Virus record (IMG/VR): IMGVR_UViG_2778261540_000003
Direction: 5' to 3' (one strand)
DNA: 64,000 nucleotides
From: a virus
Taxonomy: Duplodnaviria; Heunggongvirae; Uroviricota; Caudoviricetes
This document shows positions 42,574-63,052 of this stretch, in pieces. Under the pieces are notes generated by a model. It was not told the origin of the DNA. It was given only the letters and a program-made list of their open reading frames with translations, and made no database searches. Position numbers and translations under genes: made by a program. The stretch's first letter is position 1. Each line of letters starts with the position of its first letter.

Positions 42574-43152
42574 ATGTTGCGCTTTACTGAGGAAGAGTTT
42601 CAGGCTTTTAGTGAGCGTCGAAATAAGGGGCGGTCCAGGCCAAAAACCAAAAAGGATCCATTCTTATCGCTTGCGCCGGTAAAAGAAGTTTCTCCACATG
42701 CGAAGGCACTTGCAGCACTTGCAAAGAACCCAGACCTGCGCGACGGAAATTGCGAGCACTTCGAGCAGGTTTTCATTTTTGATTACTTCGAACGCAAGCA
42801 CCCTGACATCTATGAGCTGTTGCATGCAACGCCTAACGGAGGGAAACGTTCAAAAGCAACCGCCGGGAAAATGAAGGCTGAAGGGCAGAAAAAAGGTTAT
42901 CCGGACATGAGTCTCGATAAAGCATGCGGTATTTATCACGGCATGCGAATTGAGCTTAAAGAACCAAATGGTAAAGCCCCGACGAAAGAGCAGATCGCCT
43001 GGATGCGCAGGCTTAGAGAGGAAGGCTACTACGTTGTTCTTGCGTATGGTGCAGAACAAGCGATTACCGCCATCCTGGAATACATAAGTCTTAAAAAGGG
43101 TGAGGCTATTGAGCATGTATTGAACGGCGATAAGTGGTTGCATGCTGCTTAA
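42574..43152 (+). CDS. VRR-NUC-like nuclease
   Basis: 192-aa ORF; C-terminal block IELKEPNGKAPTKEQIAWMRRLREEGYYVVLAYGAEQA fits the VRR-NUC/PD-(D/E)xK pattern. Confidence 0.45.
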   Translation: MLRFTEEEFQAFSERRNKGRSRPKTKKDPFLSLAPVKEVSPHAKALAALAKNPDLRDGNCEHFEQVFIFDYFERKHPDIYELLHATPNGGKRSKATAGKMKAEGQKKGYPDMSLDKACGIYHGMRIELKEPNGKAPTKEQIAWMRRLREEGYYVVLAYGAEQAITAILEYISLKKGEAIEHVLNGDKWLHAA

Positions 43153-43315
43153 AATAATAAATTAATTAGTGCATGTACGCTCTTTGTGGTAGTGCACTTT
43201 AACATCGGGAGAATAATCGTGTCATCCAAGGTTAATTATGAGTCGCTGGCATCGGTCATGCCGCGTAATGAACAGGAAACAGATGCTGTAGTGGACCCTG
43301 TAATCGCTGAAATGA

Positions 43316-43978
43316 ATGCTCGCCTGGAGGCTGAATTTGCAGCTGAGAATGAACATACCACCCAGGGCGACTAGGACTGTTTTTTGTGTCGGTAGCGGTC
43401 CGTCACTCACTCGTGAGGACTGTGCTGCTATAGAAAAAACTGGCTGTTCAATCATCGCGGTTAACAATTCCTGGCAGATGTTCGATGACATTTATGCTTT
43501 ATACGCCGGTGATTTGTCATGGTGGAAGCAATACGGATCCACCATACCGGGAGGGAGATTCCGCAAAGTGACAGCCAACCTGGCGGCGGCGAAATCATTT
43601 TCGTTGGAGTACAGGCGATATTGTGGACCGGCGGAAGGGGTAAATAGCGGCGCGCAGGCTATCAGTCTGGCTGCTGAATCAGGGGCTGAAGTAGTGGTAT
43701 TAGTCGGCTATGACTGTTCTCTGCAAAACGGCCTTCATTGGCATGGCGCGCACCCTCAAGCACTACGGAATCCAACGCAGGTGTCTATTTCAAAATGGCA
43801 ACAGCAGTTCCTGGATACCCGCAAAAAACACGCAGATTTACATATTTTGAATGCAAGTAGGAGCAGTGCAATTCAATGTTTCCCAAGAATAAATTTAGAG
43901 GCAGTGATCGCGTTATTATCGTCGGCAGTGGCCCAAGCGCCGCAAACTTTGTTGCGCCGCGCGGAGTGCCGATTATAG
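43316..43978 (+). CDS. Rossmann-like glycosyltransferase-type protein (GT42/DUF115-like), paralog A
   Basis: VFCVGSGPSLT ... IIAVNNS ... VVLVGYDCS; paralogous to the next ORF, which it overlaps by about 100 nt. Confidence 0.4.
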   Translation: MLAWRLNLQLRMNIPPRATRTVFCVGSGPSLTREDCAAIEKTGCSIIAVNNSWQMFDDIYALYAGDLSWWKQYGSTIPGGRFRKVTANLAAAKSFSLEYRRYCGPAEGVNSGAQAISLAAESGAEVVVLVGYDCSLQNGLHWHGAHPQALRNPTQVSISKWQQQFLDTRKKHADLHILNASRSSAIQCFPRINLEAVIALLSSAVAQAPQTLLRRAECRL

Positions 43979-44502
43979 CGGTCAATGGGGCCATCGACTG
44001 GCTTAACCGCGCTTCTTATTTTTTCACCCTTGATCCATCCCCAGACAATATGCGGCGCGTTGGTCGTGGCCGCCGTCGCCGTGGTGTTTGTTATTGCATG
44101 GCACTACCCGATGTTAAAGAACGTGAAGTCAGAGATGGCGTTCTGTGCTTCCGTCGTGTGGCTGAACGCGGCATGGAGCCAAAAAATACGAATTCTCCCG
44201 AGTGGTGGGCGTGGCGCTGGTCCGCACATTTCGGCCTTTGCGAAGATGAGAATGAAATTGCCAGCGGCAATAGTGCATATGGTGCTCTGAACCTGGCTTT
44301 CCATATCGGATTCAAACATGTAGCTCTGGTGGGCGTTGACGCTACGCAAGAACTACGCGTTCACTCCGGCGGCACGCCAAAAAATCTAAGTCACCTGCCT
44401 TTGTTATTCCAGTCTGCGCGTGAACAGATTGACGTTGTTTCATGCGGGAAAATGGGAGGTATTCCGCAGATGACTCTTAAAGAATGGCTGAAGAATACAT
44501 GA
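43876..44502 (+). CDS. Rossmann-like glycosyltransferase-type protein (GT42/DUF115-like), paralog B
   Basis: [11 protein letters not shown] ... IIAVNGA ... ALVGVDAT; same motif order as paralog A. Confidence 0.4.
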
Positions 44503-45176
44503 TGGCACCCACAATTTATCACCGTATCGACGGTACCAAATACAGGAATGTCTGGGTTGTTGGTGATCTGCATGGTTGCTACACCAGACTGATGTCCGAA
44601 CTCCATCGTGTGGATTTTGACCCGGCGCAGGATTTACTGATATCGGTCGGCGACCTTATCGATCGCGGTACTGAAAATGTCGAATGTCTGGAACTATTGC
44701 AGATGCCCTGGTTCAGGGCAGTGATGGGGAACCATGAGCGGCTGATGATTGATGCGTTAAGTCCAGATGGCAACGTGAATAACTGGCTAATGAATGGCGG
44801 ACAATGGTTCTTCATGCTGGACACTGATCAGGAAATATTAGCCTGGGCGCTGGTGGAGCTGGTAAAGCGTCTGCCCTATATCATTGAGTTGAACACGGGG
44901 CAAGAAACTATCGTTATAGCCCATGCCGACTATCCGGATAATGAATACCAATTCGGTAAGGAGGTGCCGCTTTTCAACGTTGTCTGGGCGCGCGAGCGTA
45001 TCAGTGATTCGATGGATGATATTGGTGGCGAAATTTCGGGCGCAGATCGTTTTATCTTTGGTCACACTCCGGTGAAAAGCCCGAAGACATTCTGGAATCA
45101 GCAGTATATCGACACTGGTGCCGTATTTTGCGGAAACCTGACATTGATGAAAGTGAAAGGTGATGGTGCAGCATGA
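44484..45176 (+). CDS. Ser/Thr protein phosphatase (lambda PP/PrpA-type metallophosphoesterase)
   Basis: Calcineurin-like motifs GDLHGC, GDLIDRG, GNHE. Confidence 0.8.
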
Positions 45177-45874
45177 AGATTGCTTTAGTTTTTCGCTCTG
45201 GTGGTGACTATAACGCTTCCGATGTGCAGTGGCTGGTTAATCAACTGCCAAAAGGCTATGAAATTATTTGCCTGACAGACCTGAAGCGTTTACATGTACC
45301 TGGCGTCAAAGTTGTCCCATTGATCAACCAGTGGCAAAAGTGCCGTGGCTGGTGGGCGAAAATCGAGTTGTTCCGACCGGATATAACCGATGATCTGTTC
45401 TATCTGGATTTGGACACGGTTATTGCCGGTGATATACGCCCAATCCTAGAGCATCCACCAACCAGCTTCACCATGCTTAGGGATTTTTACCATCCACAAT
45501 ATCGTGGCAGCGGTGCCCTGTGGATACCAAATAGTGTTAAAGCGCATATCTGGAGTTCATTCTGGCAAGATCCGGAAGGTTGGATTTCTCGTTGTGTCAC
45601 TACTGAGTGCTGGGGTGACCAGGGGTTCTTACGAAAGGTTATGGGCGATGATACACCAGCATTTCAGGATCTGTATCCAGGATGGTTTGTAAGTTACAAG
45701 GCCGATGTTGTGGAACCTGGTTCAAAATATGCGAGCGCGCGTTACTCCAGGGGGAATGGGGCATTACCAAAAGACTGCCGAATAATCTTTTTCCACGGCA
45801 AACCGCGACCTCGCGAAGTGTCAGAGGATTGGCTTCCCCTTATCAGCTCATTTTTTGAGCGAGAATCAGAATAA
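45173..45874 (+). CDS. Putative nucleotide-sugar transferase-like protein (DxD motif)
   Basis: 233-aa ORF coupled to the phosphatase gene (ATGA overlap); [11 protein letters not shown]xD-like motif. Confidence 0.35.
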
Positions 45875-45875
45875 T

Positions 45876-45892
45876 ATTGCTCTAATAATTCC
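45876..45892 (+). promoter_or_regulatory. C1-operator-like site
   Basis: ATTGCTCTAATAATTCC, 14/17 match, 2 bp after the preceding stop codon. Confidence 0.55.
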
Positions 45893-45900
45893 ATATTTTT

Positions 45901-45930
45901 AAAACGTGATGTACACTCATCACGTTTTTT
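45901..45930. terminator. Hairpin terminator between two inverted operator copies
   Basis: AAAACGTGATG-TACACT-CATCACGTTTT perfect stem flanked by an A-run and a T-run. Confidence 0.5.
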
Positions 45931-45941
45931 ATTAGAGCAAT
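45925..45941 (-). promoter_or_regulatory. C1-operator-like site (inverted orientation)
   Basis: Reverse complement reads ATTGCTCTAATAAAAAA, 14/17 match. Confidence 0.5.
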
Positions 45942-45955
45942 CTACAAGGTGCACT

Positions 45956-46174
45956 ATGTGGCCATTCCGACGGAAATATCACTACTGGCTGATCGCCTTT
46001 GTTACGCCGACCGGCGGTATCAGGCATGTCATCACCAGGTATCGCAACAAGAGACTCACCTTAGCCAGAATTTTACAGGCTGCCATAGGTGAGGGACTGG
46101 ATACAAATTGCGTAGTCCTTCCTCCTTCATACTTAGGAAAAATGACCGAAGCACAAGCTAATACGGAACTTTGA
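45956..46174 (+). CDS. Hypothetical small protein
   Basis: 72-aa ORF directly upstream of and coupled to the 420-aa ORF. Confidence 0.3.
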   Translation: MWPFRRKYHYWLIAFVTPTGGIRHVITRYRNKRLTLARILQAAIGEGLDTNCVVLPPSYLGKMTEAQANTEL

Positions 46175-46175
46175 A

Positions 46176-47438
46176 ATGAGCACTTCAGCACAAAACCAAT
46201 CAATCGAAAATGTATCTATCCCTGATGTCCTGAATGCCGGTATCCCGGCCATTATCCAGAACATCCGGGCCGCGCAACGCCGCGTTAGTTGTGATGACCT
46301 CACAGCACGTTTTTTTGATAATGCGGTTCAGTCAGCGGAGATGCTTCACGCACAGCTTATTGATGTTTATAACGCAGAAGCTGATAGCCATAACTCCCTG
46401 GTAGATGCAGCTGAAAATATGCAGTTGGATCTCGGTCTGAAGGGTAAAGAAATTGAAGAGCTTCAGCTGCAAATTGAACATTTGAAACGCCAGCAACAGG
46501 ACGCGATCGACGATGCGACGCATGACGCCAACCAGCGTGCTGATAATGCCGAACGTATAAGCATTGAGCTGGAAACAAAACTCAATGAAATGACCGCGAT
46601 GGTTGAACTGCGGAACTCACAGATTTCAACGCTAAAATCTCAATATAAAGAGATCATGAAACTTGATCCTTTTAACCTTGAGAAACGCTATAACAAAGCT
46701 AAAAGCGAGCGACAGGAACTGCGTAAGCAGGTCGCCGACCTTAACCAACAGCTCAAAAAAACTATTAAAGATGCAAGCGAAGCGCGCGTGGCATTTGCTA
46801 ATAAAAAAGCAGAGGTTACCGCGCTGGTTAATGAGAATGCCAAATTTGCGACGCTCAAGAAGGAAATGTATGGCATTACTGAGCGCCGTTTCCCTGCAAG
46901 CAAACTTCATCCGACGTTAGGGCAAATCTCCTTCTTCCCGCGCCTCCTGGCTTATGGGATCTCATCGCCTAAAGAGTTCAATAACGAGCGTCCTTATATC
47001 GTTTCTAAGCTGGACTTTGCTTATCAGTTCTGCTGCGACATGGGCTATGCCATTGATATCCGAATCAACGAATGGTTGATGCCAAACTTCCAGCCGCTGG
47101 CCATTTTCCGCGAGTTCCAGCCGGAAGGTTGGGTAGAGTTCTTCCATGAATTGATCTGTAAAGAGATGGAAAGCCGCCGCCCGGAACTGGTCCGCCGTGT
47201 CGAGTGGGCGCAAGAGGTTATGTTGGCAGATGCAGAGCTGCCGTTCGAACCGGAATTTATTGATGATCTGGCAACTAAAGGGCTGCATACCCTGTTTGAT
47301 GTGGTTACCCGCCGTCATGAGCAGTTGGTTGTCGAATTGGGTTTAGAGGAAACAGCGGCAAGAAGACTTCTCGATGTTTGCTATGCACGTAGCGATGCAT
47401 GGGAAAAAGAGAACGGCGGCACTATTTACGTTCGCTGA
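46176..47438 (+). CDS. Hypothetical coiled-coil protein
   Basis: 420-aa ORF; N-terminal half is a long predicted coiled coil, C-terminal half globular. Confidence 0.45.
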   Translation: MSTSAQNQSIENVSIPDVLNAGIPAIIQNIRAAQRRVSCDDLTARFFDNAVQSAEMLHAQLIDVYNAEADSHNSLVDAAENMQLDLGLKGKEIEELQLQIEHLKRQQQDAIDDATHDANQRADNAERISIELETKLNEMTAMVELRNSQISTLKSQYKEIMKLDPFNLEKRYNKAKSERQELRKQVADLNQQLKKTIKDASEARVAFANKKAEVTALVNENAKFATLKKEMYGITERRFPASKLHPTLGQISFFPRLLAYGISSPKEFNNERPYIVSKLDFAYQFCCDMGYAIDIRINEWLMPNFQPLAIFREFQPEGWVEFFHELICKEMESRRPELVRRVEWAQEVMLADAELPFEPEFIDDLATKGLHTLFDVVTRRHEQLVVELGLEETAARRLLDVCYARSDAWEKENGGTIYVR

Positions 47439-63035: not shown

Positions 63036-63052
63036 TAATTTATTAGAGCAAT
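63036..63052 (-). promoter_or_regulatory. C1-operator-like site (inverted)
   Basis: Reverse complement reads ATTGCTCTAATAAATTA, 16/17 match. Confidence 0.7.

Follow-up and report, generated by a model that had tools for sequence, protein, structure and literature searches.

A conserved, fusion-linked cassette of three predicted sugar transferases in the pmgN-pmgQ unit of phage P1

The pmgN-pmgQ locus

Positions 43316 to 45874 of a 64,000-nucleotide (nt) stretch of DNA from a virus of the Caudoviricetes (IMG/VR record IMGVR_UViG_2778261540_000003; the whole stretch is referred to here as the window) fall in the pmgN-pmgO-pmgP-ppp-pmgQ unit of phage P1, which is preceded by pmgL-pmgM (reference annotation NC_005856). 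Here, we describe three of its genes, pmgO, pmgP, and pmgQ, as a conserved cassette of predicted sugar transferases and consider on what it may act. The seven genes from pmgL to pmgQ all lie on the plus strand. The cassette comprises pmgO (43316-43978, with a probable start at the ATG at 43349), encoding an enzyme of the Maf/MptE/GT42 fold; pmgP (43876-44502), a distant pmgO paralog of the same fold family; and pmgQ (45173-45874), whose product resembles retaining GT-A glycosyltransferases of family GT8. Inserted between pmgP and pmgQ is ppp (44484-45176), encoding a lambda-type Ser/Thr metallophosphatase.

Across all 4201 nt, positions 42000-46200 are 99.5% identical to the P1 reference (NC_005856/AF234172), with the same gene order; the other megablast matches of this segment were P1-like phage-plasmids. 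Features of the reference annotation, in which Lobocka et al. (2004) described pmgN, pmgO, pmgP, ppp, and pmgQ, map one-to-one onto the window (position in locus L001 + 39499). Only point differences set the locus apart from that of P1. The 22 substitutions in 4201 nt leave PmgL, PmgN, PmgO, and PmgP unchanged, and alter one residue in PmgM, three in Ppp, and five in PmgQ; the late promoter LPpmgL and every annotated operator are identical to those of the reference. RefSeq already labels PmgO "alpha-2,3-sialyltransferase," PmgQ "glycosyltransferase," and Ppp "metallophosphoesterase." The locus and its genes are therefore known and annotated, and the new part is the conserved, fusion-linked three-enzyme cassette together with a hypothesis on its acceptor.

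An earlier sequence-only reading of this DNA, whose open reading frames (ORFs) were all recovered at the positions it gave, had proposed a sugar- or nucleotide-modifying module extending over the operon from pmgL to pmgQ, and had allowed for its operon turning out to be identical to characterised P1 genes of unrelated function. The operon is indeed P1's own, but its genes have never been functionally characterised.

PmgO and PmgP are old paralogs with a Maf/MptE/GT42 fold

Both PmgO and PmgP carry the motif order GSGPS ... AVN ... VG(Y/V)D from which the sequence-only reading had recognised two paralogous Rossmann proteins. The motifs occupy residues 25-30 (VGSGPS), 48-50 (AVN), and 130-133 (VGYD) in PmgO, and residues 16-21 (VGSGPS), 35-37 (AVN), and 152-155 (VGVD) in PmgP. 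In PmgO, S27-G28-P29-S30, N110-S111-G112, and G131-Y132-D133 show little or no variation among relatives and align with the motifs of CstII, reproducing the order GxGPS, (T/N)SG, GxD of the nucleotide-binding motifs of GT42 (CstII-type) enzymes; PmgP has equivalents. His141, His143, and His146 of PmgO are conserved and lie in a low-confidence loop of the structural model after GxD, and His173 of PmgP is invariant; these residues are candidate counterparts of the catalytic His of the CstII lid region (His188).

The paralogy is not evident by BLASTP, which aligned only the N-terminal 36 amino acids (aa) of the two proteins (E 0.003), but it is clear by profile comparison. Because profiles built from 34 relatives of PmgO and 39 of PmgP align over 162 columns (hhalign probability 98%, E 1.5e-13), PmgO and PmgP are, as judged at the level of their families, genuine but old paralogs. 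The proposed relationship to DUF115/MptE-like, Maf, and GT42 proteins holds for both in hidden Markov model (HMM), profile, and structure comparisons. The Pfam MptE-like model (PF01973, formerly DUF115) matched 34 of the 39 PmgP family members at E<0.01, and several relatives of PmgO and PmgP carry a precomputed PF01973 match. An AlphaFold model of PmgO (pLDDT, the predicted local distance difference test, 85.6; residues 1-14 <50) retrieved the Rossmann-like fold common to Maf, MptE, and GT42, with sialyltransferases of other families ranking afterwards; 165 residues aligned to the 632-residue Maf chain 5mu5. The matches of a fold search against BFVD were all uncharacterised DUF115-like phage proteins.

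Relatives of PmgO begin near residue 12-18 of the annotated protein, about 2 to 8 residues before a conserved TxxCxASGPS core. For this reason the annotated start of the 220-aa PmgO is probably too far upstream and the ATG at 43349 (Met12) likelier, and with this start the pmgN/pmgO overlap shrinks from 59 to 26 nt.

PmgQ resembles GT8 glycosyltransferases

The DLDTVI motif on which a DxD transferase-like protein had been proposed is present at residues 79-84 of PmgQ, and this assignment could be sharpened to a DxD glycosyltransferase of the GT8 type. All 27 aligned relatives share residues D79, L80, D81, and H208, and the DxD and HG..P motifs align with those of the protein in Protein Data Bank (PDB) entry 6mw5 and of WaaO. 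A search of the PmgQ profile against the PDB reached a GT8 enzyme (E 1.6e-6), in line with a GT-A fold of the GT8 type, in which the DxD motif and the C-terminal His of PmgQ correspond to the predicted Mn2+ ligands.

The PmgQ-like family is very large. An exhaustive profile search returned 5,690 clusters (at 50% identity) with E<=1e-3 and 1,695 with E<=1e-30, and no Pfam model detects this family. The members P0213-P0357 include multidomain proteins, among them tandem duplications of the PmgQ domain and a 760-aa protein, P0279, that combines a methyltransferase, a GT9-like domain, and PmgQ.

The three enzymes travel together and recurrently fuse

Diverse loci were scanned with HMMs of the three families and of the neighbouring P1 proteins. 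The 80 related loci found in viral contigs by PmgO alignment were all P1-identical, and the diverse genome loci came via PmgP alignment. Nearly all fetched loci of sufficient length contained PmgO, PmgP, and PmgQ together. The trio was found in P1-like elements of Escherichia and Pantoea, five Pseudescherichia genomes, Serratia plymuthica, Zhongshania, Brevundimonas, Sinomicrobium (Bacteroidota), prophages of Pseudomonas and Alloalcanivorax, and several metagenomic phages, and its hosts span gamma-, beta-, and alpha-Proteobacteria and Bacteroidota. Loci with a member missing were mostly short or truncated contigs; three (L097, L099, and L110) are longer yet encode only PmgP and PmgQ.

In a phage with an SU10/P22-type portal, PmgO and PmgP form a single chain (P0051) with the PmgQ gene directly after it, and Q-O, Q-P, P-Q, and Q-Q fusions were present among the best 150 of the PmgQ-family members. 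Judged by this shared distribution, the three genes are a conserved, horizontally mobile cassette linked by fusions, and the recurrence of the fusions implies that it is important for the enzymes to be paired in close stoichiometry. Further fusion partners or neighbours are tailoring enzymes, namely, TylF-type, rhamnosyl-O-methyltransferase/CmcI-type, and class I S-adenosylmethionine-dependent methyltransferases and one Sulfotransfer_2 member; one of the methyltransferase fusions has a weak, below-cutoff heptosyltransferase-like (GT9) match. Four of 10 unidentified fusion partners had no Pfam match.

A fourth universal cassette gene did not emerge: an all-against-all comparison gave mainly alternative-frame shadows of the O, P, and Q genes, and the comparison of called neighbours only one optional family. 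Members of this GT-like family measure about 190 aa, have a DxD-like motif, and match Pfam Nucleotid_trans weakly; they accompany the trio in three unrelated phages (L103:11254-11835, L106:5795-6367, and L004:11757-12335) and are absent from P1.

Taken together, the fusions and accessory enzymes look like a predicted glycan-assembly cassette. The claim of a sugar-transfer module is thus borne out for PmgO, PmgP, and PmgQ, and not for Ppp, PmgL, PmgM, and PmgN.

Cassette positions in phages and chromosomes

Phage cassettes mostly occupy late or structural parts of the genome. Two unrelated HK97-type prophages (L103 and L109) carry the cassette directly behind the major capsid gene and ahead of the head-tail connector genes, and in three phages (L004, L104, and L106) it lies between the lysis cassette and terminase or tail genes. 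In P1, it is situated between baseplate/tail genes and the head-completion genes pmgR and pmgS and is served by late and C1-controlled promoters. In Pseudescherichia and Serratia, the chromosomal trio is interleaved with genes of inverse-autotransporter, Big_1, and Invasin_D3 proteins and flanked by ordinary chromosomal genes.

These chromosomal islands (L102:2236-18532 in Pseudescherichia and L003:10001-17785 in Serratia) appear to be undescribed. Each encodes several Big_1 proteins adjoining an inverse autotransporter, and some of the Big_1 proteins are devoid of an obvious signal peptide (two N termini inspected). The Serratia island additionally carries a lipoxygenase, a lipase, and two PmgO-like genes.

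The PmgO-like gene of prophage L109 (L109:8166-9013) has no start codon before GSGPS and contains an insertion of about 45 codons made up of 9-nt repeats. Read in another frame, the repeats give (TEP)x7 and fall within a called ORF of 129 aa that closely follows the capsid gene. This protein was considered as a mucin-like acceptor and dropped, as the repeat lies within the start-less PmgO-like frame; the sequence could reflect a pseudogene, a frameshift introduced by assembly, or a genuine overlapping gene.

The pmgO/pmgP overlap

The overlap of about 100 nt in different frames reported for pmgO and pmgP is real (103 nt, 43876-43978, plus strand; pmgP is read in the -1 frame with respect to pmgO). 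Although it had been called unusual, it is not special: other lineages have overlaps of about 4 to 130 nt, with roughly 49, 40, 13, 11, and 7 nt and one case of about 130 nt among relatives. In PmgO, conservation stops around residue 202, and the final 18 residues lie outside the conserved core. Translational coupling together with a lineage-specific, nonconserved C-terminal tail of PmgO would be a simple explanation of the long overlap.

A programmed -1 frameshift yielding a PmgO-PmgP fusion was also considered, prompted by the -1 frame of pmgP, by an A_AAT_TTA heptamer at 43891-43897 at which a slip reads straight into PmgP, and by the natural O-P fusion P0051. It was rejected, because the heptamer is not shared by the closest relatives (it has no counterpart in L087 and L088), the overlap varies over about 4 to 130 nt, and the chance of such a heptamer occurring in 33 codons is about 13%. 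The heptamer is probably fortuitous.

Ppp, PmgL, PmgM, and PmgN are neighbours specific to the P1 lineage

Ppp is a full-length lambda-type metallophosphatase, as the sequence-only reading had proposed in calling it a Ser/Thr phosphatase. It matched PF00149 Metallophos with 59.3 bits (cutoff 21.5), NCBIfam PRK11439 over its full length with 272.5 bits, below the equivalog cutoff of 326, and the NinI-like phrog_246 (E 5e-113), and it is similar to PphA, PphB, and the lambda phosphatase. Upstream of the trio, pmgL (42326-42571) encodes a DksA/TraR-like zinc finger protein, as had been recognised (phrog_54, E 1.6e-12). Support for a VRR-NUC-like nuclease encoded by pmgM (42574-43152) is weak, its Pfam VRR_NUC match of 21.3 bits staying below the cutoff of 23.8; PmgM also matched phrog_5702, Holliday junction resolvase (E 4.8e-27). 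The acidic 51-aa protein PmgN (pmgN, 43219-43374; phrog_2350) is confined to the P1 lineage. Downstream of pmgQ, pmgR and pmgS follow the operators OpmgRa and OpmgRb (reference annotation).

In the HMM scan of the fetched loci, Ppp, PmgL, PmgM, PmgN, PmgR, and PmgS were found in P1-like loci only. Since Ppp, PmgL, PmgM, and PmgN accompany the trio only in P1-like replicons, a seven-gene module is not supported and the cassette is limited to PmgO, PmgP, and PmgQ; by this distribution, Ppp is presumably an independent phosphatase whose gene was inserted between those of PmgP and PmgQ in the lineage of P1, where PmgL, PmgM, and PmgN are likewise lineage-bound neighbours. One might nevertheless imagine that Ppp works with the transferases, for instance, by dephosphorylating Ser/Thr residues or sugar phosphates before glycosylation, and that all belong to one anti-defence or host-takeover module. 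Its gene is embedded between pmgP and pmgQ, with stop/start overlaps at 44484-44502 and 45173-45176, and is kept in the P1-like element of Pantoea (L087). On the other hand, Ppp is absent from all non-P1 cassettes examined (L003, L004, and L089-L110), lambda, according to a note in the P1 annotation, has a homolog but no transferases of this kind, and knockouts of ppp and the pmg genes display no plaquing or anti-restriction phenotype (PMC9024508, PMC10695390). We consider such a joint action decidedly unlikely, and the role in anti-defence or host takeover suggested by the sequence-only reading finds no support in these knockouts.

For pmgN, the published data diverge: it was essential by CRISPR interference (CRISPRi), with an efficiency of plating of 1.4e-2, and nonessential by deletion (PMC10695390). 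Simple polarity does not explain the CRISPRi result, because all downstream genes of the unit are nonessential; pmgO, pmgP, ppp, and pmgQ were dispensable also in the CRISPRi knockdown (PMC10695390).

Two predicted C1-controlled units rather than one early operon

Going by its predicted operators, the stretch is organised in C1-controlled transcription units. The 17-bp asymmetric C1 operator consensus, ATTGCTCTAATAAATTT, matched 14 times in the window at a threshold of <=3 mismatches, versus 0.28 matches expected by chance. All three operator-like sites that had been placed at 42252 (minus strand), 45876 (plus), and 45925 (minus) are among these 14, and all are annotated in P1. The first, O26/Op82 (42252-42268, minus strand), has 2 mismatches to the consensus and overlaps the predicted sigma-70 promoters P1pmgL and P2pmgL; OpmgRa (45876-45892, plus strand), which overlaps PpmgR of the next unit, and OpmgRb (45925-45941, minus strand) are consensus matches identical to the reference.

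A further operator, Oppp/Op83 (43159-43175, minus strand), is likewise annotated in P1 and identical to the reference; with 4 mismatches to the consensus it fell outside the threshold of the scan. Because Oppp and the annotated, predicted sigma-70 promoter PpmgN (43120-43146, plus strand) lie between pmgM and pmgN, pmgL-pmgM and pmgN-pmgQ would constitute two C1-controlled units. The notion of one operator-bounded early operon was right about the bounding operators and missed these internal elements, and "early" is incomplete, since the Lpa-dependent late promoter LPpmgL (42219-42237, plus strand; identical in the window) is annotated as well.

A hairpin at 45901-45928 (no strand assigned) with an 11-bp stem and A and T runs on its flanks suggests a terminator-like element closing the pmgN-pmgQ unit (-13.4 kcal/mol, z -4.86; 0 of 200 shuffles equally stable in RNA folding), and it could act as a bidirectional terminator. 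It lies exactly between OpmgRa and OpmgRb, inside the pmgR promoter/operator region. Within the operon, a consensus scan revealed no convincing terminators or strong sigma-70 promoters. One of the substitutions relative to reference P1, 43141 T->C, hits the first base of the predicted -10 element of PpmgN (TATGCT -> CATGCT) and also replaces Tyr190 of PmgM by His; with this change, the present isolate could transcribe pmgN-pmgQ less strongly from the sigma-70 promoter.

The remaining 11 C1 consensus matches are located at 12869, 14538, 28740, 32016, 32027, 48017, 58299, 60813, 62572, 63036, and 63119; those at 32016 and 32027 form an overlapping divergent pair and those at 63036 and 63119 a close pair.

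DISCUSSION

From the folds, catalytic-type motifs, co-occurrence, fusions, accessory enzymes, and genomic positions observed here, we infer transferase activity, donors, an acceptor, and a biological benefit of the cassette. We propose that PmgO, PmgP, and PmgQ form a cytoplasmic glycan-building cassette, probably acting on proteins, within a C1-repressed P1 unit that is also served by a late promoter, a reading that we regard as evenly poised. PmgO and PmgP would be two diverged transferases of the Maf/GT42/MptE fold and PmgQ a GT8-like retaining, metal-dependent hexosyltransferase relying on DxD plus His. All three are predicted to be soluble and cytoplasmic, so that the host would have to supply the nucleotide sugars. 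Family precedent suggests a UDP-hexose as the donor of PmgQ and a CMP-activated ulosonic acid as that of PmgO and PmgP; for P1, CMP-Kdo (Kdo, 3-deoxy-D-manno-oct-2-ulosonic acid) is proposed, since it is the sole such donor available in Escherichia coli K-12. This choice of donors rests on the chemistry of the families, on the Gram-negative nature of all named source organisms, and on the absence of sugar-nucleotide biosynthesis genes beside the cassette. Together, possibly as a complex, the trio might build a short glycan on a macromolecular acceptor, most likely a protein. In phages this would be a virion or assembly protein, and in the chromosomal islands an adhesin of the Big_1/invasin type.

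Soluble glycosyltransferases encoded beside their secreted structural target are known from Maf and flagellin, Aah and AIDA-I, and GtfA/B-GlyE and serine-rich adhesins. Freeman and colleagues reportedly found in 2023 that mycobacteriophage-encoded glycosyltransferases, whose genes adjoin capsid genes, glycosylate virions. These precedents are the reason for ranking a protein acceptor first. Like the mycobacteriophage enzymes, those of the cassette are cytoplasmic, phage encoded, located in late operons next to capsid genes, and nonessential for plaque formation; unlike them, they belong to other enzyme families, the mycobacteriophage hosts are of Gram-positive type, and no glycosylated virion protein attributable to the P1 cassette has been reported. 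The chromosomal O/P/Q genes resemble those for the Aah/AIDA-I and TibC/TibA heptosyltransferase systems and for GtfA/B-GlyE in that soluble glycosyltransferases are encoded beside an adhesin, here inverse-autotransporter/Big_1 proteins. In contrast to the trio, however, Aah, TibC, and GtfA/B are GT9-like heptosyltransferases or GT4 enzymes, and glycosylation of Big_1/invasin proteins by the trio is hypothetical.

Comparison with the better-known members of the families sets the P1 proteins apart. Maf flagellin glycosyltransferases (PF01973, PDB 5mu5) have about 600 aa and three domains with DUF115 in the centre, whereas PmgO (220 aa) and PmgP (208 aa) are single domains that stay below the Pfam cutoff, and the cassette has neither nonulosonic-acid biosynthesis genes nor a link to flagellin. 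The profile match to GT42 CstI/CstII of Campylobacter jejuni in the PDB was not significant (E 0.2-0.7), and the position equivalent to the CstII Arg that contacts the sialate carboxylate is, by alignment reading, not Arg in the P1 protein. E. coli K-12 is not known to make CMP-Neu5Ac (Neu5Ac, N-acetylneuraminic acid). Compared with GT8 enzymes such as glycogenin, LgtC, the Skp1 alpha-galactosyltransferase AgtA, and GlyE of Streptococcus pneumoniae, the PmgQ family is compact (200-240 aa), distinct, and very large.

Several points weigh against a protein-directed glycan cassette. Pfam GT8 (PF01501) did not match P1 PmgQ and matched only 2 of its 27 relatives (E 0.026), and the PF01973 scores of PmgO (23.4 bits) and PmgP (20.9 bits) are below the cutoff of 34.6. 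Association with adhesins was seen in two bacterial lineages only, and cargo genes, too, are often inserted next to the capsid gene. The P1 window contains no Big_1-like protein or credible Ser/Thr/Pro-rich coding region. In P1, single-gene knockouts caused no plaquing or anti-restriction defect (PMC9024508; per-gene list in PMC10695390), and the virion proteins reported for the phage do not include PmgO, PmgP, or PmgQ (PMC9024508, PMC10695390). A literature search found no paper assigning a function to pmgO, pmgP, or pmgQ and no biochemistry on any member.

Two further points of this kind open the way to other chemistries. The fold of PmgO is common also to pyrophosphokinases (MptE, thiamine pyrophosphokinase, and SteA), and for this reason its transferase chemistry is not proven. 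PmgO and PmgP could then be kinases transferring pyrophosphate to a small molecule or to a sugar, and PmgQ would work on its own; the fusions and the glycan-tailoring enzymes in the neighbourhood argue against this, and we judge it very unlikely. Second, in a lytic phage (L110) PmgP and PmgQ are encoded in an early nucleotide-metabolism region near ribonucleotide reductase genes. This location would suit glycosylation of DNA bases, or another hypermodification, shielding P1 DNA from restriction. The alpha- and beta-glucosyltransferases of T4 are phage glycosyltransferases that modify DNA. Because the same trio is found among adhesin genes on bacterial chromosomes, however, DNA modification, which the sequence-only reading had listed among its options, seems extremely unlikely.

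Remodelling of the lipopolysaccharide (LPS) core or another cell-surface glycan deserves closer attention. PmgO and PmgP would then act like WaaZ and PmgQ like WaaO/WaaJ, and LPS newly made in the lytic cycle would be altered; infected cells and debris might, for instance, no longer expose the terminal core glucose that serves P1 as its receptor. The LPS core is the receptor of P1, all named hosts are Gram-negative, and enzymes of the same types assemble the LPS core in E. coli, whose waa cluster encodes the GT8 enzymes WaaO/WaaJ and the Kdo transferase WaaZ. The N terminus of PmgP faintly matched TIGR04437 WaaZ_KDO_III (E 0.1), and the O-P fusion P0051 has a faint match to Pfam WaaZ_KDO_III. 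These hits did not add up to a specific kinship with WaaZ/Kdo-III enzymes (TIGR04437/PF27901), TIGR04437 scoring 11.9 bits against a cutoff of 200 and the rest being only faint, and hhalign profile comparisons gave probabilities of only 19% for PmgP and 14% for PmgO with E. coli WaaZ and 6% for PmgQ with WaaO. Moreover, the P1 genes are C1 repressed and hence silent in lysogens, where surface conversion normally pays, other prophages keep the cassette in late operons, the chromosomal copies are located among adhesin rather than LPS or O-antigen genes, and no membrane or flippase components are associated with the cassette. We therefore think that an LPS-directed function is unlikely.

Returning to a protein acceptor, a more far-reaching version, which we put forward only tentatively, is that the cassette represents a new system of cytoplasmic protein O-glycosylation, widespread among Gram-negative bacteria and the phages that infect them, which uses CMP-Kdo of the host and a UDP-hexose to attach a short Kdo-containing glycan, sometimes methylated or sulfated, to virion proteins, including those of P1, and to Big_1/invasin adhesins. 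If this were true, P1 would be a glycosylated virion that nobody noticed.

P1 is among the most used phages in genetics, and for twenty years the genes of this operon have carried the placeholder name "putative morphogenetic function"; what is added here is a testable unit of three enzymes that travel together, fuse, and recruit sugar-tailoring enzymes. Should neither virion proteins nor adhesins be modified, the genes would be deletable cargo making room in P1 vectors, as essentiality screens already suggest. If Big_1 adhesins were glycosylated, the trio would constitute a new bacterial route of protein glycosylation. If virion proteins were, phage virion glycosylation would extend from actinobacteriophages to phages of Gram-negative bacteria, which would bear on P1-based delivery vectors and on how the immune system recognises therapeutic phages.

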